A DNA stretch of 64,000 nt from Gemmatimonadota bacterium (GCA_003152485.1 PMAE01000041.1:20235-84234), one strand, 5' to 3'. Shown: positions 21,583 to 59,118, counted from the stretch's first letter. Made by a program: numbers and translations. The notes: generated from the letters alone by a model not told the origin.

Positions 21583-21724
21583 GGTACATCTCCTCGTCGT
21601 GAGATCGTGGTGGACCAATGTGCCCGAATGGGTACTTGGACCCCGCAGGCGAATCGACGGTTGTCCATACGAGACGCTGACGCTTCGAACCAGGCCGTGC
21701 GCACTGCGGACGCCAGCCCCCCGA

Positions 21725-22582
21725 TCACTCGATCTTCGCGACTCCGTCGCCCGGCGTGGGGAACCGGACGAACACGTCGGGATCGTGGCCCGGAATGATG
21801 AGCCGCGGGCTCGACGCGATGTGGCGCATCCGGTCTTGGGCTTGGAGGTTCGAGGTCGAATCGCCGGGAACGTACGTCGCGCCGATCGGCACGTGCTTGG
21901 CCAGGTTCTCGAACATGTACATGTTGTCCGACGCCAGGACAACGACACCCGCCGCCGTCTGGACGCCGACGTACTCGGACGCGTAGGTGTGCCGGCCACC
22001 CGTGTACACGGTGATGCCAGGAATCACTTCCCGCGCATCCCCATCCACGAGCTGGACGCGACCGGCGCGATGCAGCTGCGCCAACATGTGCGCATCCACG
22101 GTGTCGATGGCGTTATCCAGCGGCTCGCCATTCGACCCCACATAGTGGTCGTACTCGGCCTTCTGGATCCAGATGCGCGCCTTGGGGAAGAGGTCAGCCC
22201 CGTCGAGATGGTCCCAATGGATGTGCGAGATGATGATGTCGGTGATGTCCTCGGGCTTGAGTCCGACTTTGGCGATCGCCGCTGATGGCCGCTGCCAGTC
22301 AAATGGCTTCCACGCGGTGAGGAATTGCTCCCGGTAGAATCCGGCATCGAGTAGGACGTTGCGTCCGTTTCCCTTTATGACCCCGACCATGAACGCCAGG
22401 TCGGTGCGCCGGCTCGTATCGGCACCCCGCACGAGTTCGGACACCGGAAACGAATGAAAGCCGGCGAATCGCACCATGTAGACCTCGTACGGCGGTCCCG
22501 AATGCGACGGCTGCGCCTGAAGCGTCGCCCCGCAGGCGAGCACGCCGACCACAGCCACCGCGAAGGCACAACGGGTAGTCAC
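21725..22582 (-). CDS. MBL-fold metallo-hydrolase (AHL-lactonase-like), exported
   Basis: IISHIHWDHLDG (HxHxDH). The N-terminus is hydrophobic and signal-like after GTG 22582. The start is uncertain and ATG 22681 is also possible. Confidence 0.8.
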   Translation of the reverse strand: MTTRCAFAVAVVGVLACGATLQAQPSHSGPPYEVYMVRFAGFHSFPVSELVRGADTSRRTDLAFMVGVIKGNGRNVLLDAGFYREQFLTAWKPFDWQRPSAAIAKVGLKPEDITDIIISHIHWDHLDGADLFPKARIWIQKAEYDHYVGSNGEPLDNAIDTVDAHMLAQLHRAGRVQLVDGDAREVIPGITVYTGGRHTYASEYVGVQTAAGVVVLASDNMYMFENLAKHVPIGATYVPGDSTSNLQAQDRMRHIASSPRLIIPGHDPDVFVRFPTPGDGVAKIE

Positions 22583-22694
22583 GAGAGGAGGCTCCGGACG
22601 AGGTGTACGGGGATGACCTTCGGCGAGTCGGGCGACGTAGTCCGGCTGGATTCTAGGCTCCGGGCGCTGGCGCCGCCACATGCGACATAGCACG

Positions 22695-22710
22695 TGCCAT
22701 AGCTCTGCCA
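22695..22710 (-). promoter_or_regulatory. candidate sigma54 (-24/-12) promoter facing the MBL hydrolase gene
   Basis: The minus strand reads TGGCAG-AGCTA-TGGCA, with GG and GC in the canonical 12-nt register (consensus TGGCAC-N5-TTGCW). Confidence 0.35.
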
Positions 22711-22835
22711 GATGGCTGCATGCCTCGCGTGCGCGGATGGGATCGCTCCCGCGGCGCGCCACCCTTGCTGCCTGTCACGACTGCGGGTAACCTCACCCCG
22801 ACGCTCACTCCCTCCCTGGCCGGGCCGCCTCCTCC

Positions 22836-24407
22836 ATGACTTTCCAGCGCAAGCTGCTGCTGGGGTTCTCGCTCATGGCCCTGCCCGCGCTCCTCGTCGC
22901 GGGTGAGGCGATCCGCACCAATCTGCTCGAGCGGGCCGCGCTCCGGGCGCTGGGTGAGGATCTGGCGCGTTCGCGCACCTACGGCGAGTTGGAGACGGCC
23001 ATGTTCAACCAAACCGAAACGGTCTGGCGATACCTGACCGGGATGGACCCCACCGCGCGCCAGGAGTTCGATCTCAACGGACAGGTCATCGACTACTGGC
23101 AGCAACGATGGCGCTCGGAGCTCCGCCCTGATGAGATGGGGCTCGCCAACGATGTCCACGAAGTGCAGCGACAGATTCGCGTCACCGTCGTCCATGTCTT
23201 CGCGGTCTACGATTCCGGCCAGCACGAAGCCGCGTATCGCTTGGCACAGCTGGAGATTCGCGACCGACTGCTCCCCGTGCTCGACGACCTGAATCGCAAC
23301 ATCTATCGACGAGCCCGTGAATCGAGCGTCCGCGGTGCGTATGCGCATCTGGCGGACATCGTCGCCGATGAGAACCGCGCGCTGGTCGCCATCCTCGTGC
23401 TCGCGCTGGCGACCGCCTTCGTCGCGTCCTGGCTCATCGCGCGCAGTGTGGCGCGCCCCATCAGCCAACTCCGGGAAGCGATGGCCGTCGTCGGCACCGG
23501 ACGACTGGACTATCCGATCGAGACCCGCTCGTCGGATGAGATCGGCGATCTCGCGCGCGCATTCGCGACGATGACCGAGCACCTGCGCCAGTCGCGCGCA
23601 GACATGGACCGTCTCAACATTGAGCTCGAGGCCAAGGTCGCGCAACTCGAGCGCACACAAGCGCAGCTCGTGCACTCCGAGCGGCTGGCCTCGATCGGCG
23701 AGATGGCCGCCGCGGTCGCCCATGGTATTCGCAACCCGCTCGCCAGTCTGCGCGCCGCCGCGCAACTCGCCCTCCGGCAGGCCCAGCACCAAGGCCCGCG
23801 AGAGCACCTGGGCGTCATCATCGGCGAAGTGGATCGCCTCGATCGGCGGGTCAGCCACCTGCTCAACTTCTCGCGGCCAGCGCCCGTACATCAGATGCGA
23901 GAGAGCGTCGCGCGGTTGATCGAGGACCTGACGCCGCCCTTTACCGAGCTGCTTCGCGAACGGCGCATCACGCTCGAGGTCCAGGTCGCGCCGTCGCTCC
24001 CCGATGTCCAGGTCGATCCCATGCAGGTGGAGCAGGCGCTGGTCGAAATCGTCTCCAATGCGCTCGACGCCATGCCGTCGGGCGGCCATCTGCGAATAGC
24101 TGCCCGCGCCGACACCACGGATGGACAGCCGGGCGTCGTCATCGAGATCGCCGACACCGGCGTCGGTATCCCGGAACACGTGATGCCATCGATTTTCGAC
24201 CCCTTCTTTACGACCCGCCCGGAAGGCACCGGCCTTGGGCTCGCCGTCGCGAAGCGATTCATCGAGCAGAACGGCGGGCAACTCGCGATCGCGAGCGCCC
24301 CCGGCATCGGCACTACTATCCAATTGCGGCTGGTCGCGGCGGCAGACCACGACTCAGCGCCAGTCACGATCTCGGCCGCGAATTCCACGTCCACGAGTTC
24401 CACGTGA
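22836..24407 (+). CDS. sensor histidine kinase (TM - helical sensor - TM - HAMP - HisKA - HATPase_c)
   Basis: H-box SIGEMAAAVAHGIRNPL. G boxes EIADTGVGI and GTGLGLAV. HAMP-like ARSVARPISQLREAMAVVGTGRLD. Confidence 0.9.
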   Translation: MTFQRKLLLGFSLMALPALLVAGEAIRTNLLERAALRALGEDLARSRTYGELETAMFNQTETVWRYLTGMDPTARQEFDLNGQVIDYWQQRWRSELRPDEMGLANDVHEVQRQIRVTVVHVFAVYDSGQHEAAYRLAQLEIRDRLLPVLDDLNRNIYRRARESSVRGAYAHLADIVADENRALVAILVLALATAFVASWLIARSVARPISQLREAMAVVGTGRLDYPIETRSSDEIGDLARAFATMTEHLRQSRADMDRLNIELEAKVAQLERTQAQLVHSERLASIGEMAAAVAHGIRNPLASLRAAAQLALRQAQHQGPREHLGVIIGEVDRLDRRVSHLLNFSRPAPVHQMRESVARLIEDLTPPFTELLRERRITLEVQVAPSLPDVQVDPMQVEQALVEIVSNALDAMPSGGHLRIAARADTTDGQPGVVIEIADTGVGIPEHVMPSIFDPFFTTRPEGTGLGLAVAKRFIEQNGGQLAIASAPGIGTTIQLRLVAAADHDSAPVTISAANSTSTSST

Positions 24408-24417
24408 AGCCGACCGT

Positions 24418-24501
24418 ATGAGCGCCACGGCATGAGCGTCTCCGCATGAGCGTCTCCGCATGAGCGCCACAGCATGAACTCCGCAGCATGAGCGCCTCCA
24501 C
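24418..24501 (+). repeat. six tandem 14-bp units (ATGAGCGYC-type), the last containing the regulator start codon
   Basis: ATG at 24418, 24432, 24446, 24460, 24474 and 24488. Units 1-5 each read ATG + 4 codons + TGA, and each TGA overlaps the next ATG (ATGA). Confidence 0.9.
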
Positions 24502-25900
24502 CGTCCTCATCATCGACGATGAGCGCACCCTCGCGCGATCGATCAAGGCGTTTCTGATTGATTCGGGCTACGACGCCGAGGTCGCCGGAAGCGGAGAGCA
24601 GGCACTCGAGCAGCTCGAGCGCATCCGGCCGGACGTGATCTTCGCGGATATGCGACTCCCCGGTATGAATGGCATCGAGCTCCTGCGCCGCATCCGGGAA
24701 TTCGATCCCGCAGTGCCCGTCATCATGATGACGGCCTACGGCACGATTGAAGGCGCGGTCGAGGCGGTCAAGCTCGGCGCCTTCGACTACCTGAAGAAAC
24801 CCGTCGATTTGGACGAGCTCAAATTGCTCACCGACCGGGCGCGTGAATCCTCGCGGTTGAAACAGGAGCTGTCGTACTATCGACGTCGTGGGACTCCCGA
24901 GGTGCGATTCGCGGAGATCGTCGGTCAGTCGCCCGCGATGCTGGCGGTGCTGGATCGCGCGAGACAGATCGCGGTCCTCGACGATGTGCCGCCGGTGTTG
25001 ATCACGGGCGAGACGGGCACTGGCAAGGGCCTGCTCGCCCGCAGCATCCATGCGTCGGGTCCACGCGCGGCCAAGCCATTCATTGAAGTCAACTGTACCG
25101 CGTTGCCGGCCACGTTGATGGAGGCCGAGCTCTTTGGCCACGAGCGTGGCGCCTTCACCGACGCCAAGGAATCGAAGATCGGTCTCTTCGAAGCCGCCGA
25201 AGGCGGATATCTCTTTCTCGACGAAGTCGGCGACATCGAGCTGCCGCTCCAAGGGAAATTGCTGCGCGCGATCGAAGACCGGGTGGTCCGCCGCGTCGGC
25301 GGAATCCGCGACCGCAAGATCGATACGCGAATCTTCGCCGCTACCAATCGCGACCTGGAGCGCGACGCGCAGCTCGGACGGTTCCGCAAAGACCTGTATT
25401 TCCGGCTCGCCGTCATTCTGCTCCGATTGCCGCCCCTGCGAGAGCGCGGTGACGATGTCCTCCTACTCGCCGAGCAGTTCCTGCACCAGTTCGGGGCCAA
25501 ATACGGCAAGGATGTGCGAGAGCTCAGTCCCCGCGCCCGTGCGCTGTTGCTCACCTACCCGTGGCCCGGCAACGTGCGCGAGCTCAGTCACGTGATCGAG
25601 CGTGCGGTGCTCTGGAGCCGCGGCCCGGTCCTGGACGCCGACCATCTCTCGCTCACCGAGCCCGCGCCGCCCGAGACCGCCGCCGCCGATGATCTCCATC
25701 CGATTGCGAACGGCAGTGACGCGTCCAATATCGGATTCGGCATTCCGCCCGGCGCCGGCGACCTCCCCCAATGGGAGAAATCGGTGATCGAGCATGCATT
25801 GCGCGAAGCCGGCGGCAACCAAACGAAAGCCGCCCACCGACTCGGCATCAGCCGCGACACGCTACGCTATCGTTTGAAGAAGTTCGGGATCCAAGCGTAG
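24488..25900 (+). CDS. sigma54-dependent response regulator (NtrC family: REC-AAA+-Fis HTH)
   Basis: REC (VLIIDDE...FADMRLPGMNG), Walker A GETGTGKG, GAFTDA (GAFTGA-type sigma54 contact loop) and C-terminal HTH NQTKAAHRLGISRDTLRYRLKKFG. Confidence 0.92.
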   Translation: MSASTVLIIDDERTLARSIKAFLIDSGYDAEVAGSGEQALEQLERIRPDVIFADMRLPGMNGIELLRRIREFDPAVPVIMMTAYGTIEGAVEAVKLGAFDYLKKPVDLDELKLLTDRARESSRLKQELSYYRRRGTPEVRFAEIVGQSPAMLAVLDRARQIAVLDDVPPVLITGETGTGKGLLARSIHASGPRAAKPFIEVNCTALPATLMEAELFGHERGAFTDAKESKIGLFEAAEGGYLFLDEVGDIELPLQGKLLRAIEDRVVRRVGGIRDRKIDTRIFAATNRDLERDAQLGRFRKDLYFRLAVILLRLPPLRERGDDVLLLAEQFLHQFGAKYGKDVRELSPRARALLLTYPWPGNVRELSHVIERAVLWSRGPVLDADHLSLTEPAPPETAAADDLHPIANGSDASNIGFGIPPGAGDLPQWEKSVIEHALREAGGNQTKAAHRLGISRDTLRYRLKKFGIQA

Positions 25901-25994
25901 TCAGCCGGGAGCCCGCAGCCGCCAAGAGGCTCCGAATTGCGAATCAGCGCGCTTAGCGCCTGTCCCCTACCGGGTGCCAATGGACTACGCAGCA

Positions 25995-26016
25995 GGGGCC
26001 GTTCCCGAACGGCCCC
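25995..26016 (+). terminator. GC hairpin after the regulator gene
   Basis: GGGGCCGTT-CCCG-AACGGCCCC. The T tract is weak. Confidence 0.4.
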
Positions 26017-26090
26017 TACCTTCCCGATGCATCAATCCTCATGTCATCGCGACGGACGCCGCCGGCGCCTGTGGTGTACATTCGCGAGCT

Positions 26091-26124
26091 GGGTCATTTC
26101 ACCCAATTACCAGCCAAATGACCC
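26091..26124. promoter_or_regulatory. 9-bp inverted repeat, candidate enhancer (UAS) for the pqqA promoter
   Basis: GGGTCATTT-N16-AAATGACCC is centred about 120-130 bp upstream of the sigma54-like promoter. Confidence 0.3.
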
Positions 26125-26224
26125 TCCCCGCCCCAGAAATCTAACTCGACAGCTACAACCAGCCAGATCGCATAAGACGCAACGCAACAACTAGTTAGGC
26201 GACGTCTCGAGGCCGTCAATGCCG

Positions 26225-26240
26225 TGGCATGCGGCGTGCT
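26225..26240 (+). promoter_or_regulatory. candidate sigma54 (-24/-12) promoter upstream of pqqA
   Basis: TGGCAT-GCGGC-GTGCT against consensus TGGCAC-N5-TTGCW. GG and GC are in the correct register. It lies 74 nt upstream of ATG 26314. Confidence 0.5.
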
Positions 26241-26313
26241 TATATGCGAGGCAGAGTCGAGCCATCCAATGATTCGGCCAGATGCTGCATCATGATCAAC
26301 CTCGGAGCGCCAT

Positions 26314-26385
26314 ATGTGGACCAAGCCTGAATTCGAAGTCGTAGAAGTCACGATGGAAGTGACCGCCTACGTCGCCCGGCGCTAA
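26314..26385 (+). CDS. pqqA: coenzyme PQQ precursor peptide PqqA (orphan copy)
   Basis: A 23-codon ORF absent from the 60-aa-threshold track: MWTKPEFEVVEVTMEVTAYVARR. It has the MWTKP opening and the E-x-x-x-Y cross-link pair (EVTAY). GGAG lies 6 nt upstream of the ATG and a terminator follows. Confidence 0.8.
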   Translation: MWTKPEFEVVEVTMEVTAYVARR

Positions 26386-26410
26386 GAGCCGGACGTAGCG
26401 TGCAAGTAAA

Positions 26411-26444
26411 GGGGCCCGCGAACGCGGGCCCCTTGTTCGTTTCT
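26411..26444. terminator. bidirectional intrinsic terminator between pqqA and the convergent dioxygenase gene
   Basis: GGGGCCCGCGAACGCGGGCCCC followed by TTGTTCGTTTCT on the plus strand and by TTTACTT on the minus strand. Confidence 0.7.
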
Positions 26445-26449
26445 GGAAG

Positions 26450-28114
26450 TTAGGAGCGCGCGCTGCGCCCACTGGTGAGCACGCGTTCGAGCCACGCTCG
26501 AGCCGCGGCCACTTCGCCCTCCGTGATCGAATGGCCACCCTCCTCCCAGTGGATGGTGACCTCGGCCCCGGCTCGGCGTAGCAGATCAGCGAGCTGCTCC
26601 GATTGTGCTGGGCTCGCGATCTGATCGCCGCGGCCCGCTCCGATAAACACCGGCATCCCGGCCAAGTCGGGCAGCGGGTCCGCGTCGAACGGAACCATCG
26701 GACTCAATAAGACAGCGGCTCGCAGCAGTCCCGGACGGCGCAGGAGCAGGCTTGCCGCGATGTTTGCGCCGTTCGAGAACCCGACCGCTACGATCCCGTC
26801 GCGGTCCAATCCGTAGGTCGTGGCGGCCGCCGTGATGAATTCCGCGAGCTCGCTCGTGCGACGCGCCAGGTCTTCCTGATCGAACACGCCCTCCGCGATC
26901 CGGCGAAAGAATCGCGGCATGCCGCGCTCCAAGACCTGACCGCGAGGGCTCAACAGACCGGCGCCGAGGACCAGCGCACGACCCAACGGAACGAGGTCCT
27001 CCTCGTTGCCGCCGGTGCCGTGGAGCAGGAGCAGTGTTGTACCGCCGGCGTACTCCGAGCCGGGCGCGGGCGGTACGTACCGATGGACGAAGCCGAGTGC
27101 ATCGCCGCTCACATCTTCGGGGCCGCCCCCCGCCTTCGCGATGCTGAGCTCCGCGCCCGTCACCGGGAGGTGTATCGGCGGCAGCACGGCCTCGATCTGC
27201 GGCCGATACGACTCGTACTGCGGCGGCAACATGAGGCGTTCCCCAAGGTGCTCGATCGGCTCGTCGATCGCGAAGCCTGGGCCATCGGTCGCGATCTCGA
27301 ACAACACGCCGCCGGGTTCGTGAAAATAGACCGAATGGAAATACGTGCGATCGATGACCGGGGTCGGCGTGGGGCCCGCCGCGACCACCTGCTCGCGGAT
27401 CGCGAGTTGGGCCGCGTCGTCCGCCGCGCGAAACGCGACGTGGTGGACGATCCCACTCCCGCCCGCGCCGCCCGCGAATCCGCCGATCTCCCGCACGTCG
27501 ACCAATGTCCCCGCGCCGCCATCGCCCACCGCGTATCGCCGGGTCGTCTGGTCCTCGCCGACCGCGCGAAATCCCAGCGTATCGATGAGCAAGCGCTCGG
27601 TCGCGTCGTGCTTCTCCTCCCACAGTGTGACGCTATGAAATCCCCGGATCGCGTGTGCGGCGTCGATCCCCGGCGCGCCACGCCACGCGGGTCGAGTCTC
27701 CGCGCTCGCGTGCGCGACGATCTCCAACATCAGCCCGTCGTGGTCGCGAAACGCGAGCACGCGCTCCGTCGCTGCGCCCACCTCGCGCTTCGTCGGCCCC
27801 TCGAACGGCACGCTGTGGCGGACCAATCGCTCGACCCAGAAGCCGAGTGCCGCGGGCGATACCGCGAACGCGGTGACCGCGACCTGACCCGCGCTCTGGC
27901 GCCCCCGCCGAGCGCCCGGCCATGGAAAAAAAGTCAGGACGCTGCCCGGCGTCCCCGTCTCATCCGCAAAGTAGAAATGGTAGGTCTGCGGGTCATCGAA
28001 GTTCACCGTGCGCTTGATGAACCGCAGCCCGAGCAGACCGACGTAGAAGTCGAGGTTCCGCTGTGGGTCGCCGGCGATCGCGGTAACGTGATGGATTCCG
28101 AGGACGCTGGTCAT
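26450..28114 (-). CDS. VOC-family ring-cleaving dioxygenase fused to phospholipase/carboxylesterase-type hydrolase
   Basis: The N-terminal VOC modules (GIHHVTAIAGDPQRNLDFYVGLLGL, IVHHVAFRA) resemble MhqO-type extradiol dioxygenases. The C-terminal ~200 aa form an alpha/beta hydrolase (LLLLHGTGGNEEDL, GFSNGANIA), like MhqD-type esterases. Confidence 0.85.
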   Translation of the reverse strand: MTSVLGIHHVTAIAGDPQRNLDFYVGLLGLRFIKRTVNFDDPQTYHFYFADETGTPGSVLTFFPWPGARRGRQSAGQVAVTAFAVSPAALGFWVERLVRHSVPFEGPTKREVGAATERVLAFRDHDGLMLEIVAHASAETRPAWRGAPGIDAAHAIRGFHSVTLWEEKHDATERLLIDTLGFRAVGEDQTTRRYAVGDGGAGTLVDVREIGGFAGGAGGSGIVHHVAFRAADDAAQLAIREQVVAAGPTPTPVIDRTYFHSVYFHEPGGVLFEIATDGPGFAIDEPIEHLGERLMLPPQYESYRPQIEAVLPPIHLPVTGAELSIAKAGGGPEDVSGDALGFVHRYVPPAPGSEYAGGTTLLLLHGTGGNEEDLVPLGRALVLGAGLLSPRGQVLERGMPRFFRRIAEGVFDQEDLARRTSELAEFITAAATTYGLDRDGIVAVGFSNGANIAASLLLRRPGLLRAAVLLSPMVPFDADPLPDLAGMPVFIGAGRGDQIASPAQSEQLADLLRRAGAEVTIHWEEGGHSITEGEVAAARAWLERVLTSGRSARS

Positions 28115-31868: not shown

Positions 31869-32861
31869 TCAGAGAGAATCAATCTGAGGCGCGGGAATCC
31901 CGCGTGTTCCAATCTCTAGCCGATGCGCGCGCGCCGGAGATCGGCGCGGCACACGATCGAGCGCCGCCGCGATGCCGGCCGCGAAGCGTCCCGCCGCGCC
32001 GCGATCCGTCGTCAGGAACAGTTGCGGCTCGATGCATTCCAATTCGATGAGCAATAGTCGCCCCTGACGGTCGATGCCGTCTACCCGGGCATAGAGAATG
32101 TCATCGGCCGCCACGCGGGTCATAGGGGGGACGGCGCCGAGCGCGCGCGCGGCGTCGGCGATCAACGGCGCCGCGGGTGTCTCGGAGGTGACTGATCCAC
32201 CAAACGCGGATTGCACCAGAAAATCTCCGGCCGCCGGGCGCTTGCGGACAGCGTGACTGTATTGCCCGCTCAGAAACATCAACGACCACTCGCCATCCCG
32301 TTCGATTTCCGGGAGAAATGCCTGCACCAGTACCGCACCGTTCGCGAGCAGCGCATCGAGGTGCCGTTGGTCCCGGTGGCCCGCTTCGCCCACGATCCGC
32401 CGGGTGCCATACGCGCTGGCCGCGATGGCGGGCTTGATCACCGCCCCCGATTCCCATCCCCGGTCGCGGAGGATCGCGGCAAGCGACGCGGATGCGCCTG
32501 GCTCGACCCACTCGGTGGGCGCGACGGGTATCCCATGCGCGGCGAGGTCACGCAGGTAGCGTTTGTCACAATTCCACCGTACGAGGGCCGGAGGATTCCA
32601 GATCGGGATGCCGGCGCCGTGGACTGCGTCGAGCCACTCGAGGAACGCGTCCGGCCGCAGATGATAGTCCCAACACGACCGGATCACGATCCCGGCGTAC
32701 GACGTCCAGTCGATCGCCGATGCGTCCCACACGACCGCCTCCGCCGCGATGCCAAGCGCGATGCACGCATTGATCAGCGGGGCATCGTCGTCAGTCAGAT
32801 CCGGGAGCTCGCTACTCGTGGCCAGCGCGAGACGGCGGTGATGGGATCGAGCCAGTGACAT
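31869..32861 (-). CDS. ATP-grasp domain protein (RimK/GSH-synthetase-like)
   Basis: KRYLRDLAAHGIPVAPT...AVIKPAIAASAYGT...LVQAFLPEI...GEWSLMFLSG...ARVDG fits the ATP-grasp pattern. Confidence 0.7.
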   Translation of the reverse strand: MSLARSHHRRLALATSSELPDLTDDDAPLINACIALGIAAEAVVWDASAIDWTSYAGIVIRSCWDYHLRPDAFLEWLDAVHGAGIPIWNPPALVRWNCDKRYLRDLAAHGIPVAPTEWVEPGASASLAAILRDRGWESGAVIKPAIAASAYGTRRIVGEAGHRDQRHLDALLANGAVLVQAFLPEIERDGEWSLMFLSGQYSHAVRKRPAAGDFLVQSAFGGSVTSETPAAPLIADAARALGAVPPMTRVAADDILYARVDGIDRQGRLLLIELECIEPQLFLTTDRGAAGRFAAGIAAALDRVPRRSPARAHRLEIGTRGIPAPQIDSL

Positions 32862-36104: not shown

Positions 36105-37868
36105 TCAGGGCCCGAACGACACCGTGTAGTCGTGGATGCTGCTTCGCCGCGCGACCGGAAAATGCCAGACGAATACGCGGTGCACGATGCAGGACTCGAC
36201 GTCCGTGGGGACCGCGGCGCTCCAGCTCCGATCGACCACCGTGGCACGCATCACCTCGCCGGAATCGCTAAGTGAGATGCGGACGGTGACGTGTCCGCTC
36301 AACGACGGGTTGATGCTCAGGCCGTATTGCGCGTAGCACGCGGTCACCGATGACTCGCGGCGGTGTGTCTCGGTCGTGAACTCGGCGTCGGACAACCCGC
36401 CGTCATCGACCGCGGCCGCTGCGGCCGGCGGGCCTGTAGCAGGTGCGGGTGTCAGGGGCGACGACGCGGGTGCTGTCGCGATCGCCGGAGATGGAGATGT
36501 TGTCGCAATCGCCGGCGGAGGTGGCGTGGCCCGTGCTGGAGCCGGCGGCACGTTCGAGGATGCGGTAGATGTGGGCGCGGGCGCGATCACCGGCGTGGTC
36601 GTAGCGACGAGCCCCACGGTAATGGTACGAACCGGCGCGCGAACATTGACGGTAGTGGTGCGTGCCGCCGACGGTCGAGCGGTATCTCGCGCCGCAATGG
36701 CCGCGGTCACGGCGGCTGGCGGCGATGGAGGAGCGGCGACACGCAAGGTCGCTGACGCCGGGACAGGTCGCTGTACGACGTTCGTCGTCGGCGCGGCCAC
36801 CGTCGGTGCGGTCATGGCCGGTAGTGAACGGGCATCCACTGATGGGACGGCAGGAGCCGCCACTTTGACCGCAGGTGCCGCTGCCAATGTCGCCGTAGTG
36901 AGCACCGCTGCAGGGACCGAGGGCGGCGGTGCAATCAACGGTTGTGCGACGGCCGACTCCGGCACGAGGGGCGGCTCGGGTGGTCCCGCTACCGGCTGCG
37001 CCGGCGCCAACGTGACCAACGACGGCGCCGCTGACGCAATCTCCGTCACGCGAACCGGTGCAGACGGTACGGTCGGAGCGGGCGGCGCGGCGGCTGGCGA
37101 GCTGTTGCCGGTCACGCGCGGTGTTGCGGGCGATGGTGTTGCGGGCGATGGTGCGGGTTGCGGCGGGGCTGTTGCCACGACGAGCGCAGCGGCTCGCGCC
37201 GTGCTGTCCGACACTCGGCTCGCCATCATCTCACGCGCCGCGCGCGCTGCCTCCCGAATCGCGGGCACGACAGGGCGGAGCGCCGGAGCGAAGAACGTCG
37301 TGGACACTACGTCGGGGCCCAACTCGCCGATCTTCACGACAAGGGTCGGCGGGTCGGTCCGCGGCCGCGAGATGAGAACGAAATCTCCGAACGCGAGTTG
37401 GTCGCGGGTGGAGGTGGTATCGGGCCGCTCGCGGCGCGTGACGGCTTGCTGCAGGCTGTCAGCCATTAGTGGCTCGGCGAGCGCGGCCCACCGGTCGGCC
37501 TCTTCCGCGGTCAGCGTCACCGGCTGCGCAAAGGCGTTCCGGAATCCCGACGAGGCGTACACCAGCACGGTGCCTTCGTCGGTCGCCCGAAGCCACACGT
37601 AGACGTTGGCGTTCTGAAACATCACCATCTCGCGCATGTCGGTCACGCGCGATGGCGAACGCACGGGGACTGCGGATTGCGAAATGGCCAGACGCGGCCA
37701 ACACACCAGCGTCGCCATCGCCGCGAGGGCGACGAGCGGGACCCGCACTCGCCGTAGTGATGGCGCGCGACTCGCGCACGCCGATCGATGCGTCGGGTAC
37801 CGTCGCGCTAGCCGAGTCCCAACGAGACACCGCACAATGGCTGACGCGCAGCCAGGTCGCGAGGTCAC
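36105..37868 (-). CDS. Pro/Ala-rich exported protein with AgmX/PglI-type (TonB_C-like) C-terminal domain
   Basis: The C-terminus ...SVTACYAQYGLSINPSLSGHVTVRISLSDSGEVMRATVVDRS...VESCIVHRVFVWHFP resembles the AgmX/PglI C-terminal domain. A long low-complexity P/A/T linker precedes it. The start is uncertain. Confidence 0.65.
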   Translation of the reverse strand: MTSRPGCASAIVRCLVGTRLARRYPTHRSACASRAPSLRRVRVPLVALAAMATLVCWPRLAISQSAVPVRSPSRVTDMREMVMFQNANVYVWLRATDEGTVLVYASSGFRNAFAQPVTLTAEEADRWAALAEPLMADSLQQAVTRRERPDTTSTRDQLAFGDFVLISRPRTDPPTLVVKIGELGPDVVSTTFFAPALRPVVPAIREAARAAREMMASRVSDSTARAAALVVATAPPQPAPSPATPSPATPRVTGNSSPAAAPPAPTVPSAPVRVTEIASAAPSLVTLAPAQPVAGPPEPPLVPESAVAQPLIAPPPSVPAAVLTTATLAAAPAVKVAAPAVPSVDARSLPAMTAPTVAAPTTNVVQRPVPASATLRVAAPPSPPAAVTAAIAARDTARPSAARTTTVNVRAPVRTITVGLVATTTPVIAPAPTSTASSNVPPAPARATPPPPAIATTSPSPAIATAPASSPLTPAPATGPPAAAAAVDDGGLSDAEFTTETHRRESSVTACYAQYGLSINPSLSGHVTVRISLSDSGEVMRATVVDRSWSAAVPTDVESCIVHRVFVWHFPVARRSSIHDYTVSFGP

Positions 37869-44745: not shown

Positions 44746-46119
44746 CTAGGCGGCCGATGACCGAGTGAGCCCGTGCCGCCGCATGATCTTCAACAAGCTG
44801 GCGTGGTCGGCGAGCTCGAGATCCTGCGCCGCACGCGTGACGTGCCAATCGTGGCGGTCGAGCGCAGCGATGATGATCTGCCGCTCGGCTTCGGCTTTCC
44901 GCTCGAGAAAGGTGCGCCCGATCGATGCCGGCGCAGCGACCCGAGACGCGCCCTCGTCTCGGACCTCGAGCGGTACGTGCTCCGGACCGATCGTGTCGCC
45001 ATCCGACGCGATCACCATCCGCTCCACCACATTGCGTAGCTCACGGACATTGTTCTGGCGCCAGTCGTACGCCATGAGCAGTGGGAGGACCGACGTACCC
45101 AGTCGCTTCGGGCGGCACCGGAACCGATCACACGTCGTCGCCAGCAGTCGTGCCACCAGGTCCGGCAGATCGGAGAGCCGGTCGCGCAGCGGCGGGACGC
45201 GCAGGATGTGTACGTTGAGCCGGAAGTAGAGATCCTTCCGGAATCGGTCGGAGCGCACGTCCGCGTCCAGATCCCGATTCGTCGCCGCGACAACGCGCGC
45301 GGGAACGGCGACACCGCGGGTGCTACCCAGCCGAACCACGACGCGTTCCTCCAGCACGCGCAGAAGCTTGGCCTGCGCCGCCAACGGCAGGTCGCCGATC
45401 TCGTCGAGAAAGAGGGTACCCCGCCCCGCGCTCTCGAAGGCGCCCTTTCGCTGCGCGATCGCTCCGGAAAACGCGCCCCGCTCGTGACCAAACAACTCGC
45501 TCTCCACCAGATGCTCCGGCAGCGCGGCGCAGTTGACGGCCACGAACGGTTCTCGGGGATTGGCCCCTAGCCGGTGTACCTCACGTGCGACGAGTTCCTT
45601 GCCCGAGCCGCTTTCGCCCATGATGAGCACCGCGCTCGGGATCGGCGCCACACGCGCGATGGCATCCTTGAAGGCACGCATGGCCGGGCTCGACCCGAGG
45701 AGCGCGCTCTCGTCGTCCGCGTACCGGCGCAGCATCGCGATCTCATCCAGCATCCGCCGCCGCTCGATGGCCAACTCGATCTCCCGGGCGACCCGCTCGA
45801 CAGGCTCTTCCTTGTCGATGAACGCCGACGCGCCACGCCGAATGGCATCCGCGCACCGGTCGTAGCTGCCGGTGCCCGTGTACACGATGACCGGAACCGC
45901 CAGGCCACGCTCCCGCATCGCCTGCAGGACGCCGAATCCGTCCATGCCAGGCATCTCGAGATCGAGCACGACGCAGTCGACGGCGTCTCGACTCAGCACG
46001 TCGAGCGCCGCGGCCCCCGAACCGACGACTTGGACTTGGTGGTCGCCCAGGCGCCGGAGATCATAGGCGTACTGTTCGGCCACCAGGATGTTGTCGTCAC
46101 ACACGAGAATGGTAGACAT
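44746..46119 (-). CDS. sigma54-dependent response regulator (NtrC family)
   Basis: REC (ILVCDDN...VLDLEMPGMDG), Walker A GESGSGKE, the GAFSGA loop and a C-terminal HTH. Confidence 0.92.
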   Translation of the reverse strand: MSTILVCDDNILVAEQYAYDLRRLGDHQVQVVGSGAAALDVLSRDAVDCVVLDLEMPGMDGFGVLQAMRERGLAVPVIVYTGTGSYDRCADAIRRGASAFIDKEEPVERVAREIELAIERRRMLDEIAMLRRYADDESALLGSSPAMRAFKDAIARVAPIPSAVLIMGESGSGKELVAREVHRLGANPREPFVAVNCAALPEHLVESELFGHERGAFSGAIAQRKGAFESAGRGTLFLDEIGDLPLAAQAKLLRVLEERVVVRLGSTRGVAVPARVVAATNRDLDADVRSDRFRKDLYFRLNVHILRVPPLRDRLSDLPDLVARLLATTCDRFRCRPKRLGTSVLPLLMAYDWRQNNVRELRNVVERMVIASDGDTIGPEHVPLEVRDEGASRVAAPASIGRTFLERKAEAERQIIIAALDRHDWHVTRAAQDLELADHASLLKIMRRHGLTRSSAA

Positions 46120-46128
46120 GATCGATCC

Positions 46129-47886
46129 TCAGGATGGGCGCGTCTGGAGAGGTGTCGCTGTGGACGTGCTCGGACCGGCAAGCGTGACGATGACCCGCGT
46201 CCCGGTACCGGGTGCTGTCTCCACTCGAAGCTCACCATGGATGTCGCGAACCAGACGACTCACGATGGAGAGTCCGAGACCGGTGCCGGTGGGCTTCGTG
46301 GTGTAGAAGTCGTTGAACGCCATACGGAGCTCGTCAGAAGTCATCCCACATCCGCCGTCGGCGACCGTGACGCGGACCCCGCCCTGCAGCGATTCGGTCG
46401 TGATCATCACCGCATCGGACCGCTGACCGGCCGCCTCGCAGGCGTTCGCGACGAGATTCTCCAGGATACGGCGCACGACAAGCGCGTCCACAGCCATCGC
46501 GGGGACCGCGGCGTCGAGGTGGAGCGCGATGGACGCGCCAATATTGGAAGATCCGTCTGCGTCAGACCTGGTGTAGCCAGCCGCCACTGCGTGCGCCACG
46601 GCGTTGACATCGCACGGACCGACGTCGAGCGGCGGACTGAGGCGCGCGTAGGTCCGTGCGAGTTCGTCGAGATAGGCGATGCTCGCGTCGAGCGTGGGGC
46701 GGCGCTGTGCGAAGACGGTCGCCAGCCGGTCCGGCTGCGTGTGCTGGACCTCTGTGAGATGGCGGACGACGTGACGGATCGGCACGAGGCCGTTCTTCAC
46801 GTCGTGGGTCACCTGCCGTGCGAGGTCGCCAACGGTTGCGCGCCGTTCGGCATCACGCAATCCCGTCGCGTTCGTGCGGAGTCGGCGCACCATGGCGGCC
46901 AGGACTCGAGAGAGCGCCCCAATCTCATCGTCACGATCATTAGGGAAGTCGCCGGCCGGCGCCTCGAGATTGACTCGCGTGGATTGCTCGGCGAGCGACC
47001 GCAAGGGGCGCGAGATGCGATCGGCCAACCAGTTGGCCGTGAGCAGCGCCGCGGCAGCGGCCAGGCCGACGGATGCGAAGCACCACCAGACTATCGCGGC
47101 GCGCAATGCGTGGAGCCCGGTCAATGATTGCGTAACCTCGAAGCGGGCAGACGCGACAGCACGGCCGCCTCCCGCTGCGGCGGTAATCACCGGGAAGGGA
47201 AATGATGCGACGATCGCGGTACGAGGCGACACGGGTGATGGCCCCGTCGCGATCGTGGCGGGTGCTCCAGCCATACCGCTGGGCACGATGAGGGCCACCG
47301 AGAGCTCGCTGTCGGCTACCAGATGGCCGAGTAATCGCGGGCTGGCCTCGATCCCGCCGACGAGCGCGAAGCGTCGGCCTCCAAGTCGCAAAGAATCAAC
47401 ACCCGCGAGGATCAGCATCGCGCCGTCTGGCGTCCGAGCCGACACCAGGGCGGTGCCGCCTGGCGCGGACACGAGCAGTGGGACGAGATCGGGCTCCATT
47501 CGATCGAATTCGTTTCGATAGTGGCCCGAGCTCAGGATCCGGCCGCTGTCGTTGTCGATCTGGAGCATCGCGAGGCCTGAGAGCCGCATGGCATGTACGG
47601 CGTAGTCGAGGAGATAGCGTCGCTCGGACGGTGCGTCCTGGACCGCAGCAAGCCGAAATCGATCGTCGTCAACGACGCCGTCGCGCACCGACGCCAACCG
47701 GGCCGCGACGGTCGAGCCAGCGCTCGCCAAGTCGCCACGGGTCCGTGCGGCGAGTCCAGTGACGCGGCGCTGATAGGCAGCGGTGAGCTGTCGGTCTACC
47801 TCGTGCCCGATGCCAACGCCCAAGACGACCAACGGCACGACCGCGGTCGTCGCAAAGGCGACAAAGAGGCGAGTCCGGAATGTCAT
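46129..47886 (-). CDS. sensor histidine kinase (periplasmic sensor - HAMP - HisKA - HATPase_c)
   Basis: Two TM segments flank a ~270-aa sensor. H-box ARQVTHDVKNGLVPI. G boxes TVADGGCGM and GTGLGLSIV. Confidence 0.88.
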   Translation of the reverse strand: MTFRTRLFVAFATTAVVPLVVLGVGIGHEVDRQLTAAYQRRVTGLAARTRGDLASAGSTVAARLASVRDGVVDDDRFRLAAVQDAPSERRYLLDYAVHAMRLSGLAMLQIDNDSGRILSSGHYRNEFDRMEPDLVPLLVSAPGGTALVSARTPDGAMLILAGVDSLRLGGRRFALVGGIEASPRLLGHLVADSELSVALIVPSGMAGAPATIATGPSPVSPRTAIVASFPFPVITAAAGGGRAVASARFEVTQSLTGLHALRAAIVWWCFASVGLAAAAALLTANWLADRISRPLRSLAEQSTRVNLEAPAGDFPNDRDDEIGALSRVLAAMVRRLRTNATGLRDAERRATVGDLARQVTHDVKNGLVPIRHVVRHLTEVQHTQPDRLATVFAQRRPTLDASIAYLDELARTYARLSPPLDVGPCDVNAVAHAVAAGYTRSDADGSSNIGASIALHLDAAVPAMAVDALVVRRILENLVANACEAAGQRSDAVMITTESLQGGVRVTVADGGCGMTSDELRMAFNDFYTTKPTGTGLGLSIVSRLVRDIHGELRVETAPGTGTRVIVTLAGPSTSTATPLQTRPS

Positions 47887-49046
47887 GGGCCGTGCCCCCG
47901 CATCTGGGCGAGCGACGCACTGTCACCTCCAGCCCCGATCCACGCAACCGCGTTGCGGCTCACGATTGCCCGTGCGCGGGTCTCGATCAACGGGACGATG
48001 TCGCCTGTCCGACCATCGGCGGGGAGGGGCAGCCACGGGACCGCGTCCGCGAGCAGCCGTTCGTCTCGACATGACGGCGCCATTCGCGACGGAACCGCGA
48101 CGACATATGCGGCCGCTGTACCTGCGGCGAGCGCACGCGTGAATTGGTCTGCGGGCACGCCGACGACGTGCATCTCGTGGGCCATCGGGTCAAGCCCCGG
48201 TGCGAGCGCGGAGAGTGACCGACTGCCGGTCGCGGCGAGAACAGCAACGCGCTCAGCGAGTGCGCGCCCCACGGCGTCGCCACGCGGGTAGAGGATGCTC
48301 GTCACCGCGGGCGACGCCGCCGGCGACACCGCACGCGATTCCGCAGGCCGCGCCCCGGACGATCCTTCGGACACGACATGCGAGCCGGCCTCCGGCCGCG
48401 ACAGCAGCGCCGAGTCCTCCCGACAGGGCGTGCGTGCCATCCACCAAGGCGTCGACGCAAACGGCCGTGATTCGGCTGGCACCGCGTCGCTCGCGAGTTC
48501 TGACCGTAATGTGATACCCGATGAGTCCGACGGAGGCGCGGCGGCAGCCGATATCGTCCCGGGCACGAGAAGCAGGTATGCGCGGTCCCAGGAGAGGGGG
48601 ATCGATATCAGATCGCCACGGGTCGCCGCATACGCGATCACCGCCACATCGCGCGTCACGAGCACGTCGACTCCCAGGTCGAGCGCATCACGTGCGTCTC
48701 GCTCGACGACCTGACGGACGTCGAACGACGTGTCCGGTGCGGGGCTCTGACCACCGTACGAGGCGGTCGCGCGATTGTCGCACTGCGTCGGCCGTAGCGC
48801 CGCGGCGACCTGATCGAGCACGCGCGACGCAAGGCCGACACGCATTTCGGCCGTCACGCCGGAATCCGTCGGGGCAGCGATCGCAACGACGATCCGGCCA
48901 GTCTGGCTCGCTGCTGCTGCACACGAATCGCCCCGTGCGCTACGCGTCAGTGCCAACGGCGACCGGACCCCTGTCCTACCGCACGCCACGATCCCAGTGA
49001 CCACCGCGCAGCCGCCCAAACGAGCCAACCGATCGACCCAATCCAT
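47883..49046 (-). CDS. lipoprotein, solute-binding-protein-like, first gene of the TCS2 operon
   Basis: Lipobox GIVACG. The stop overlaps the kinase ATG (ATGA at 47883..47886). No confident domain call. Confidence 0.6.
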   Translation of the reverse strand: MDWVDRLARLGGCAVVTGIVACGRTGVRSPLALTRSARGDSCAAAASQTGRIVVAIAAPTDSGVTAEMRVGLASRVLDQVAAALRPTQCDNRATASYGGQSPAPDTSFDVRQVVERDARDALDLGVDVLVTRDVAVIAYAATRGDLISIPLSWDRAYLLLVPGTISAAAAPPSDSSGITLRSELASDAVPAESRPFASTPWWMARTPCREDSALLSRPEAGSHVVSEGSSGARPAESRAVSPAASPAVTSILYPRGDAVGRALAERVAVLAATGSRSLSALAPGLDPMAHEMHVVGVPADQFTRALAAGTAAAYVVAVPSRMAPSCRDERLLADAVPWLPLPADGRTGDIVPLIETRARAIVSRNAVAWIGAGGDSASLAQMRGHGP

Positions 49047-57602: not shown

Positions 57603-59069
57603 CTAATTCCCCGCTGCCGCTTTCGCGGGCGTCGCGGGCGCCGTCGGATGACTCGATCCCGGCGGCCCATGATCCCAGTCCTGGGCGCTCGAGATGTTCG
57701 GCATCGACCAATCGTCCCCGTTCCAGCCACTGAAGCCATCCATCTTGAACAGCCACGCTCCGGTGTTTGAGTCGGTGATCAGGATCAGGCCGTCGGCGTT
57801 GCGCACCATGACGCCGAACGCGCCGTTATAGATGCTCGTACCTTGCCAATCGGGCAGACCACCGAAGCCCTGCCCGTGGGAGCATTCGCAGGTGTAGTAC
57901 CATCCCACCGTCTTCGGGCGCTTCGGGTCCTGCATGTTGAATACCTGCAGTCCGTCTTCGTACGCCGATACGAAGACGTAGGGCCAGCGGACCTCATGAT
58001 TGTGTGCCAGGTCGTTCCAGTCGGCATTCCACACTGAGATCGGCTGCGTGATCGCCTGGACTTTCCCCGTGAGACCCGGACGCAGATCGAAGATCCGGAG
58101 CGGCGCCCACTGGTATTCCGACTCCGTGACCGCGAACTCGCCGTCCGGCGTCGGGGTGAACGTGTGCCCCCAACTCACGCCGGCCGCGCCGACGATCGAG
58201 GTGAGGAGCTTCGGCGCGTCCGTGTGCGTCACGTCGAAGATGTAGTAGCCGCCCGCGCCCGCGCCGTAGAACTTGTCCTGATGCGTTGCGGGGTCGTAGC
58301 CGACGTAAAAATCGTGGTAGCCTGAGATGGAGAGCGGCTTCGAGCTGTTCATCCCGGGGAGCGCTTCGTCCCAGTGCGGACCCGGTGGGATGGGGACCGT
58401 GCCCACCAACCCCTGGTCCTTGTCGCCCGCCAGCAGCTTGTCCATGTCGTAGATGTTGGCGACGCTGGACGTCGTGGTGGTGAATAGCAGCACCCGTCCA
58501 TCCGAGTGCTTGTACGGGAACAAGTTATGAAATCCCCCGGGCGTCGCGGGGGCATGGATCCGCGCAACGACCTTGACCTTGCTTGTGTCGGGCAAGCCCG
58601 TGACGTCAAAGATCACCGCCCCCAACTCCGCGTCCGGCGATCCCTGAAGGAACTGGAAGCACACCGCCACGTAGTACTTGTTGTGCAGCTTGAAGTACTT
58701 CGCGCGGAGGCCGCCGTCTCCGGAATGCAGCGCGGCATTCTCGATTTTCCACTTGTAGAGGACCTTGATGTTGTTGAGGTCCTTGAGATCGAGAATCGTG
58801 AAACCGGGCCGGTCGCGGAGCTGGCCCACGTACGCGTACGGTCGCGACATCTCCTGCTCGAGGTCCGCATCCCCGACGCGGAAATACCCGCCTAATGGGA
58901 TGTGCCCGAGCAGATGGATGTTCGGACTTCCACCCACCTTCTCGAGCAACGGCGCGCCGGGCGCGGTGGCGTTGCGCGGGTCCTGCGCGCCTGCCGCGGA
59001 TGCCCCGGCGAGCACCAATGCCGCGCACGCGAGCGACGCGGGAAGACGGTTTCGTCGTGTCTGCAACAT
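57603..59069 (-). CDS. exported LVIVD-repeat beta-propeller protein
   Basis: ATG 59069 is preceded by GGGAG. Signal peptide ...ASAAGAQ. Repeats of the type YAYVGQLRDRPGFTILDLKDLNNIKVL and YVFVSAYEDGLQVFNMQDPKRPKTV. Confidence 0.75.
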   Translation of the reverse strand: MLQTRRNRLPASLACAALVLAGASAAGAQDPRNATAPGAPLLEKVGGSPNIHLLGHIPLGGYFRVGDADLEQEMSRPYAYVGQLRDRPGFTILDLKDLNNIKVLYKWKIENAALHSGDGGLRAKYFKLHNKYYVAVCFQFLQGSPDAELGAVIFDVTGLPDTSKVKVVARIHAPATPGGFHNLFPYKHSDGRVLLFTTTTSSVANIYDMDKLLAGDKDQGLVGTVPIPPGPHWDEALPGMNSSKPLSISGYHDFYVGYDPATHQDKFYGAGAGGYYIFDVTHTDAPKLLTSIVGAAGVSWGHTFTPTPDGEFAVTESEYQWAPLRIFDLRPGLTGKVQAITQPISVWNADWNDLAHNHEVRWPYVFVSAYEDGLQVFNMQDPKRPKTVGWYYTCECSHGQGFGGLPDWQGTSIYNGAFGVMVRNADGLILITDSNTGAWLFKMDGFSGWNGDDWSMPNISSAQDWDHGPPGSSHPTAPATPAKAAAGN

Positions 59070-59118
59070 AAGCTCCCTCGGAATTGTGGAGAGGTACGAC
59101 AACACGCGAACGAACTGG

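Follow-up and report, generated by a model that had tools for sequence, protein, structure and literature searches.

Gene content of the locus

This study concerns a two-component system and the adjacent gene for the pyrroloquinoline quinone (PQQ) precursor peptide, pqqA, on a 64-kb stretch of DNA from a Gemmatimonadota bacterium (GCA_003152485.1, PMAE01000041.1:20235-84234). This whole stretch is referred to below as the window. Gene order, domains, and promoters were studied in positions 21725..26444. The core of the locus consists of a sensor histidine kinase (HK), an NtrC-family response regulator (RR), a control region with dyad-symmetric sites and a sigma54-type promoter, and pqqA followed by a terminator. 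A reading of the region from its sequence alone, called here the sequence-only reading, had named the kinase, the regulator, and pqqA in this region. All three genes are real, the first two by their Pfam domains and pqqA by the profile TIGR02107 (30.8 bits for MWTKPEFEVVEVTMEVTAYVARR against a curated cut-off of 20, E 1.8e-7). The core features are as follows:

22836..24407, plus strand: sensor histidine kinase with a first transmembrane segment (TM1), periplasmic four-helix bundle, TM2, HAMP, HisKA, and HATPase (Pfam, AlphaFold)
24488..25900, plus strand: NtrC-family response regulator with receiver domain (REC), sigma54 AAA+ domain (GAFTDA loop), and HTH_8 (Pfam)
26090..26105, no strand assigned: upstream activating dyad TGGGTCATTTCACCCA, predicted RR site, about 120-135 bp upstream of the -24 box
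26110..26125, no strand assigned: degenerate second dyad CCAGCCAAATGACCCT, a half-site only in the window (alignment with relatives)
26225..26240, plus strand: sigma54-type -24/-12 promoter TGGCATGCGGCGTGCT, conserved, with GG at 26226-7 and GC at 26238-9
26314..26385, plus strand: pqqA, encoding the PQQ precursor peptide MWTKPEFEVVEVTMEVTAYVARR, 23 codons, with the E-x3-Y motif as EVTAY (TIGR02107)
26409..26444, plus strand: intrinsic-terminator hairpin after pqqA, 11 pairs, T-rich tail (terminator scan)

The regulator carries a complete set of domains. Response_reg is matched at 8.6e-33 over residues 6-112, with the acidic receiver residues DD at 10-11 and the phospho-acceptor D54 (FADMRLP). 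Sigma54_activat is matched at 4.4e-61 over profile positions 1-166 of 168, AAA_lid_14 at 3.8e-24, and the C-terminal Fis-type helix-turn-helix (HTH) by HTH_8 at 1.8e-16. The best NCBIfam match of the RR is AtoC, at 454 bits, which lies below the equivalog cut-off of 714. Similarly, the AtoS equivalog scores the HK at 239 bits against a cut-off of 646.

The AlphaFold model of HK residues 1-262 (pLDDT 84.7) has the order TM1, periplasmic four-helix bundle, TM2, and HAMP. Its best Foldseek matches in the PDB are sensor-TM-HAMP fragments of NarQ (5jgp, 6yue, and 5jeq), with E-values of 6e-4 to 2e-3 and TM-scores of 0.4-0.5. Because the predicted sensor fold is NarQ-like, the signal of the kinase is probably a small periplasmic ligand. 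The HK thus resembles the NarX/NarQ nitrate sensors in the predicted fold of its N-terminal 262 residues, but its identity to NarQ is 17% and its partner is of the NtrC type, whereas that of NarX/NarQ is of the NarL type.

Gene order among relatives

A scan with the HK of one genome per GTDB species yielded 16 Gemmatimonadales loci (L001-L015 and L017; HK identity 57-85%), and a metagenome scan with a PqqB profile added further Gemmatimonadales-type clusters (within L028-L042). Gene order in the GTDB loci was read by tblastn. Calls of pqqBCDE are NCBIfam equivalog hits above cut-off in L009 and tblastn matches in the other GTDB loci. The window, L001-L004 (HK identity about 84%), and the nearest relative, L109 (91%), are referred to as the window clade. 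The best kinase matches are full-length at 62-91% identity, and the named ones all belong to Gemmatimonadales or Gemmatimonadaceae; orthologues of the HK at 57-91% identity are confined to Gemmatimonadales.

The HK and RR genes are clustered with pqqA in 24 Gemmatimonadales loci, at HK identities down to 57%. All 15 GTDB species loci long enough to show it (HK 57-85%) have the order HK-RR-pqqA, as do L033, L035, L108, and L109. The surrounding genes vary. In the 11 more distant GTDB loci, pqqA is followed by pqqB, pqqC, pqqD, and pqqE, and an association with pqqBCDE is also found in L033 and L035. In L036 and L037, where the order is HK-RR-pqqBCD-pqqA-pqqE, the window-type PqqA peptide is encoded within a complete pqq cluster. 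In L108 (HK 72%), the HK and RR genes are followed by the dyads, the promoter box, pqqA, and pqqE only. Finally, L038 has pqqABCD with two M16 peptidases (PqqF/G-like) and no HK-RR within 4.5 kb. Because pqqA precedes pqqBCDE in the 11 more distant GTDB loci, HK-RR-pqqABCDE is, by this comparison of gene orders, the ancestral unit, and the orphan pqqA of the window is derived from it by lost linkage with pqqBCDE.

Side by side, these arrangements show a stepwise break-up around a constant core of HK-RR, box, and pqqA: pqqA-BCDE, pqqBCD-pqqA-pqqE, pqqA-pqqE, and pqqA alone.

Sigma54-type promoter and upstream dyads

Two -24/-12-type matches flanking the kinase and regulator had been proposed, and both exist, one on the plus strand facing pqqA and one on the minus strand facing a hydrolase gene. 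Matches to the bare consensus do not exceed chance. TGGCAC-N5-TTGCW with at most two mismatches occurs 15 times in the window against 21.6 expected from shuffles, and GGCAY-N6-TGC occurs 5 times against 7.0 expected. Consequently, the decision on the promoter rests on comparative data. Every pqqA of the GTDB loci is preceded, at a distance of about 70-125 nt from its ATG, by GGCA(C/T)-N6-TGC. A weight matrix was built from 23 boxes of relatives, with the window left out. Its top score in the window, 17.5 bits, falls on 26223..26243, with 9.9 for the runner-up, and 0.055 sites with 17.5 bits are expected per 64 kb of Markov-random sequence; the matrix boxes were collected by regular expression, which makes the matrix strict and its score an ordering device rather than an independent probability. 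This ranking puts the site before pqqA at the top of the window, but it gives the minus-strand match TGGCAGAGCTATGGCA -16 bits.

The box is found in 27 of the 28 pqqA genes of the Gemmatimonadales peptide type, which establishes the pqqA-facing site by conservation. The box and dyads of the GTDB loci recur in L028-L031, L033, L035, and L042. In L036 and L037, the box lies directly upstream of the relocated pqqA, between pqqD and pqqE, accompanied by the dyad in L036. The sole exception is L038, which has a sigma70-like TTGCGT-N18-TATAGT and no nearby HK-RR. L034 and L039, whose PqqA peptides are divergent and which have no HK-RR, also lack the box. For the pqqA-pqqB loci that the metagenome scan returned from other lineages, neither the strict box nor the generic TGGYA-N7-YGCW occurs within 200 nt (0/36), and these 36 loci have no orthologous enhancer-binding protein (EBP) nearby. 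In total, none of the 38 other pqqA loci (36 of other lineages and 2 with divergent peptides) has the box. The core of HK-RR, box, and pqqA is kept although the genes around it were rearranged in at least three different ways, and it disappears where the regulator is absent, which argues for a functional link between HK-RR, box, and pqqA.

Relatives have one or two 16-bp TGGGT-N6-ACCCA dyads upstream of the box, frequently beginning right at the RR stop codon; their spacing is 18-20 bp, and their distance to the box is about 100-135 bp. TGGGTCATTTCACCCA is the sole exact TGGGT-N6-ACCCA in the 64-kb window, and nearly all related loci have a dyad of this type at the same position relative to the box. 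Across 15 GTDB loci, about 190 kb of sequence, dyads with at most one mismatch all lie in the pqqA control region, except one in L010. The second site of the window, CCAGCCAAATGACCCT, corresponds in the alignment to TTGGGTAAATGACCCA of L001 and to the complete second dyads of L007, L008, L015, and L017. In NtrC-family EBP systems, the dimer sites for the Fis-type HTH are placed about one DNA loop from the sigma54 promoter. By analogy, the pqqA control region has the textbook EBP layout. The transcription start of pqqA is predicted near 26251, which would give a leader of about 63 nt.

Several further elements were observed in this control region. A third dyad, TGGGTG-N4-CACCCA, lies downstream of the box in the leader, 46-71 nt before the pqqA ATG, in L006, L009-L013, L028, L030, L031, L033, L035, and L042. 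Its possible roles include those of an operator, an additional enhancer site, or a hairpin in the RNA. This dyad is missing from the window, and in L001-L004 its place is taken by GACCCACCCGGGTC. A short ACTTAnG / GTTAyG-like element recurs in many loci between the dyads and the promoter, about 35-45 bp from the -24 box (in the window, CTAGTTAGGC at about 26183..26192) and might be a site for a bending protein (IHF/HU) or a second regulator. Between the RR stop and the dyad, the window has a specific stretch of about 190 bp (25901..26085) with a hairpin at 25995..26016. An Rfam scan of 21600..26600 gave nothing above threshold.

Interpretation and proposed mechanism

Domain content, gene order, and the conservation of the dyads, the box, and pqqA are direct observations. 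Considered jointly, they suggest with good confidence that HK-RR is a Gemmatimonadales-specific two-component system with the pqqA promoter as its direct target. The check proposed along with the sequence-only reading, a comparison of HK/RR neighborhoods in related genomes, points the same way: HK-RR, box, dyads, and pqqA are co-conserved across the order. Its suggestion that a precursor of the type of ribosomally synthesized and post-translationally modified peptides (RiPPs) is under signal-dependent sigma54 control is strongly supported by the same co-conservation.

The mechanism would proceed in the following way, RR phosphorylation and binding, sigma54 dependence in vivo, and the transcription start being predicted steps. 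The membrane kinase would sense a periplasmic signal through its NarQ/Tar-like four-helix bundle, autophosphorylate, and phosphorylate the regulator. The phosphorylated RR would bind the TGGGT-N6-ACCCA dyad or dyads at 26090..26125 and oligomerize, and its AAA+ domain would open the sigma54-RNA polymerase complex at 26225..26240 in an ATP-dependent manner. The expected product is a short pqqA transcript in which a leader of about 63 nt is followed by the 23 codons of the gene and by the terminator (26409..26444). Since this promoter precedes pqqABCDE in most relatives, the system would control synthesis of the PQQ cofactor. In the window clade, the precursor gene alone would be left under HK-RR control.

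An equivalent GC-rich hairpin lies 3' of pqqA in every related locus, even where pqqB follows. In Methylobacterium extorquens, a hairpin after pqqA gives more precursor than enzyme transcript, and the hairpin between pqqA and pqqB in the relatives may have the same effect.

Points against the interpretation and alternative explanations

Several points weigh against this interpretation. The loci are related by descent, so that their counts are not independent trials and part of the co-occurrence is shared ancestry. The second dyad of the window is degenerate. PQQ synthesis in the window clade is assumed, its pqqBCDE not having been located there. No RpoN-box motif, which would mark rpoN, was found in the window or the fetched related loci. 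Lastly, the sigma54-contacting loop of the regulator reads GAFTDA, and VfmH, a protein with this loop, showed no detected interaction with sigma54. Regarding rpoN, the gene is likely present in the genome of the window, as implied by the two EBP genes of the window, the RR and a second NtrC-type regulator (44746..46119).

One alternative treats the orphan pqqA as a relic or as a gene with a role other than PQQ synthesis, pqqBCDE being lost or not co-regulated. It is favored by the absence of the biosynthetic genes. The pqqB-E families gave no match among 40 large open reading frames (ORFs) scanned in the 64-kb window, and pqqBCDE was not found within 22 kb upstream or 38 kb downstream in the window, nor within 6-10 kb in L001-L004 and L109. 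In the metagenome scan with the PqqB profile, none of the clusters L028-L042 was assignable to the window clade. The description of pqqA as an orphan in the sequence-only reading is thus true of the window but does not reflect the ancestral layout. However, the PqqA peptide is identical between the window, L001-L004, and L109, and its E-x3-Y motif, promoter, ribosome-binding site, and terminator are intact. The synonymous sites of pqqA are conserved too. Moreover, the same peptide type occurs in the full pqq clusters of L036 and L037, and split pqq clusters are common in Gemmatimonadales (L108, L038). For these reasons, a relic or a non-PQQ role is considered very improbable.

The codons of pqqA are nearly frozen within sub-clades, where 18-21 of 20-21 informative codons are identical (window, L001-L004, and L007-L015). 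In the kinase gene, by comparison, 55-68% of the codons for identical amino acids are identical, and 79% in the closest pair, L009/L012. Between sub-clades, pqqA codon identity drops to background. The conservation around pqqA extends to the ribosome-binding site and about 12 nt past the stop codon.

A second alternative holds that the regulator works without sigma54, as a sigma70 activator or a repressor, and that the box is coincidental or serves another EBP. It draws on the regulator loop, which is GAFTDA and not GAFTGA. The same loop is found in 14 orthologues, counted by regular expression where it was detected (L014 is truncated and L017 did not match). In the study of VfmH, the GAFTDA protein did not pull down sigma54, and its authors left the effect of the G-to-D change undecided (PMC10714721). 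The third dyad, downstream of the promoter in many relatives, also has a position that fits repression. On the other side, GAFTDA figures among the motif variants for which activation is expected to persist, and it occurs in DVU2106, an EBP to which a sigma54 regulon has been assigned (PMC4641369). The matches of the RR to the AAA+ sigma54-interaction domain and the AAA lid are full-length. A pattern scan of 21600..26600 found no canonical sigma70-type promoter. A stronger argument for sigma54 use than the loop is the invariant -24/-12 box next to the regulator: its GG and GC never vary, it co-occurs with this regulator in at least 24 loci, and it is missing where the regulator is missing (L034, L038, L039, and the 36 controls). 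Action without sigma54 is therefore regarded as very unlikely.

Hydrolase gene and the spacer upstream of the kinase

The sequence-only reading also included a gene upstream of the kinase, on the opposite strand, as part of the system. The features on this side are as follows:

21725..22582, minus strand: hydrolase of the metallo-beta-lactamase (MBL) fold, probable lipoprotein (Lactamase_B 3.9e-14, HIHWDH, VLAC lipobox-like N-terminus)
22650..22655, minus strand: TAGAAT, a -10-like hexamer within GGATTCTAGG, candidate sigma70-type element for the hydrolase gene
22695..22710, minus strand: -24/-12 look-alike TGGCAGAGCTATGGCA, two mismatches to the consensus, judged a chance match
22765..22793, plus strand: TTGCTG-N17-TAACCT, candidate sigma70-type promoter of the HK-RR operon, proposed from conservation

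This gene had been described as an exported hydrolase resembling acyl-homoserine lactone (AHL) lactonases. The MBL fold holds (Lactamase_B at 53.5 bits against a cut-off of 22.7, with the HxHxDH metal motif as HIHWDH), and the lipobox-like N-terminus is present provided that GTG 22582 is the start codon; in the nearest relative, L109, the called gene has 282 aa. With AiiA-type lactonases it shares the MBL fold and the HxHxDH motif. The AiiA equivalog model of NCBIfam gives 71 bits against a cut-off of 375, and the remaining lactonase models give 40-45 bits or less, far under their curated cut-offs. The closest solved structure is 8x78 (2.5e-28), annotated as a glyoxylase-type MBL, and AHL lactonases rank behind it among the best matches. 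No functional link of the hydrolase to HK-RR was found. A further candidate role, that of a displaced PqqB (also of the MBL fold), was rejected, the PqqB model not being among the NCBIfam hits of the hydrolase.

According to a third alternative, the regulator drives two divergent sigma54 promoters, that of the hydrolase and that of pqqA, in a three-part module. Two observations would fit it: TGGCAGAGCTATGGCA, on the right strand, is a GG-N10-GC match about 110 nt ahead of the hydrolase start, and the hydrolase lies beside the HK in all six window-clade sequences. However, TGGCAGAGCTATGGCA sits in a window-specific insertion of about 80 bp (22672..22760), which has no counterpart in L001, L002, and L004 and a fragment only in L003; L109 (HK 91%) has a different insert in this spacer, without a -24/-12 match. 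Despite the same gene order, neither a strict nor a generic -24/-12 match was found on the minus strand in the 400 nt upstream of the HK in L001-L004 and L109. The TGGGT-N6-ACCCA dyad was found neither in the hydrolase-HK spacer of the window nor in this 400-nt stretch of any locus, and two-mismatch -24/-12 matches occur in the window at chance frequency. The hydrolase is beside the HK only in the window clade, and not in the 11 more distant GTDB loci, L033, or L108. Among the GTDB loci, L001-L004 alone share the hydrolase, a DinB-like gene, the VOC-esterase, and an alpha/beta-hydrolase.

The conserved TAGAAT suggests a promoter of another kind for the hydrolase. GGATTCTAGG, which contains it, is invariant in the window and L001-L004 amid a diverging spacer. 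On the HK side, the blocks CCCTTGCTG and GTAACCTCA are invariant in the same five sequences, and both recur in L109. TAGAAT and TTGCTG-N17-TAACCT are read as putative sigma70-type elements from this conservation alone, the sigma70 pattern scan of 21600..26600 having found no canonical promoter.

A three-part module with two sigma54 promoters is thus highly improbable. The idea that the EBP acts on both adjacent promoters keeps its pqqA side, where comparative evidence speaks for it, and loses its hydrolase side; the minus-strand site is not retained as a hydrolase promoter. Lack of co-conservation of the three units in related genomes had been named beforehand as grounds for refutation. Because the three units are not co-conserved, the hydrolase unit fails on these grounds, and the layout of hydrolase, HK-RR, and pqqA is not supported. 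The hydrolase is an unrelated clade-specific neighbor rather than a supported target of the regulator, and it probably has its own sigma70-type promoter.

Near this gene, the dyad-like TGGGTACTTGGACCCC (21629..21644) was considered as a second regulator site and rejected: it differs from the dyad at one position, a degree of match that arises at chance frequency, and relatives have not retained it. It lies between the hydrolase stop and the start of the DinB-like gene, where relatives have TGGGTCGTTGGACACCC.

Comparison with known systems and significance

The HK-RR pair has the same domain architecture as NtrB/NtrC-type systems with an adjacent sigma54 target, such as AtoS/AtoC and ZraS/ZraR. 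The AtoS and ZraS models match the HK core, and AtoC is the best model for the RR. The arrangement of tandem dyads about 100-135 bp upstream of a -24/-12 promoter beside the regulator gene is also AtoSC/ZraSR-like. In contrast, the pair is not an orthologue of any curated member of the AtoSC, ZraSR, or NtrBC systems, its sensor is a NarQ-like bundle, and its regulator loop is GAFTDA. The targets of AtoSC and ZraSR are acetoacetate or zinc-stress genes, whereas the predicted target of HK-RR is pqqA or the pqq operon. The circuit would work like AtoSC, ZraSR, or NtrBC and is not mechanistically surprising.

Known PQQ regulation includes the Mxb/Mxc systems of M. extorquens. Like the proposed circuit, these and AgmR/ErbR of Pseudomonas control transcription of pqqA or the pqq operon in response to a signal. 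The described pqq regulators are of the LuxR/NarL type and act at sigma70 promoters (PMC12997753), and CbrAB affects pqq only indirectly (PMC3480352). In the literature searched, in which few subscription journals were covered, neither pqqA with a sigma54 promoter or EBP nor the Gemmatimonadota pqqA arrangement was found described. A canonical two-component/sigma54 circuit with PQQ biosynthesis as its order-wide target is thus undescribed in that literature.

Periplasmic alcohol and sugar dehydrogenases, among them lanthanide-dependent enzymes, use PQQ as their cofactor. PQQ-dependent dehydrogenases are abundant in soil Gemmatimonadota (bioRxiv 10.64898/2026.07.10.737718). The interpretation would assign a function to the HK-RR pair across a whole order and describe a compact sigma54 promoter-enhancer cassette. 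It offers a testable regulon for a conserved kinase/regulator pair, with a defined dyad, a defined sigma54 promoter, and a single tiny target gene, and it removes the hydrolase arm as a false lead. Such a system is useful for the PQQ and quinoprotein biology of the barely cultured Gemmatimonadota and as a clean sigma54 test case.

A more speculative extension, regarded as less likely than not, is a dedicated cofactor-supply circuit, in which the sensor reports PQQ demand (PQQ itself, a quinoprotein substrate, or lanthanide/calcium status) and gates nothing but RiPP precursor supply via sigma54. If this were true, precursor transcription would be the controlling step, furthest so in the window clade, where the enzymes are unlinked. 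In a more extreme version, the window clade may be without pqqBCDE and the strongly conserved peptide may have another role.

Other observations in the window

Past pqqA lies a convergent gene (26450..28114, minus strand) encoding a 554-aa fusion of a VOC/glyoxalase part and an MhqD-like carboxylesterase, the latter scoring 163 bits (cut-off 325). This gene is kept in L001-L004 and L109. For three long ORFs of the window (31869..32861, 36105..37868, and 57603..59105, all on the minus strand; 330-587 aa), Pfam gave no match at E <= 0.001. A second two-component pair (44746..49046, minus strand) is preceded by a 387-aa ORF without a Pfam hit. It consists of a HAMP histidine kinase (46129..47886, minus strand) and the NtrC-type regulator at 44746..46119 (minus strand), whose loop is GAFSGA.

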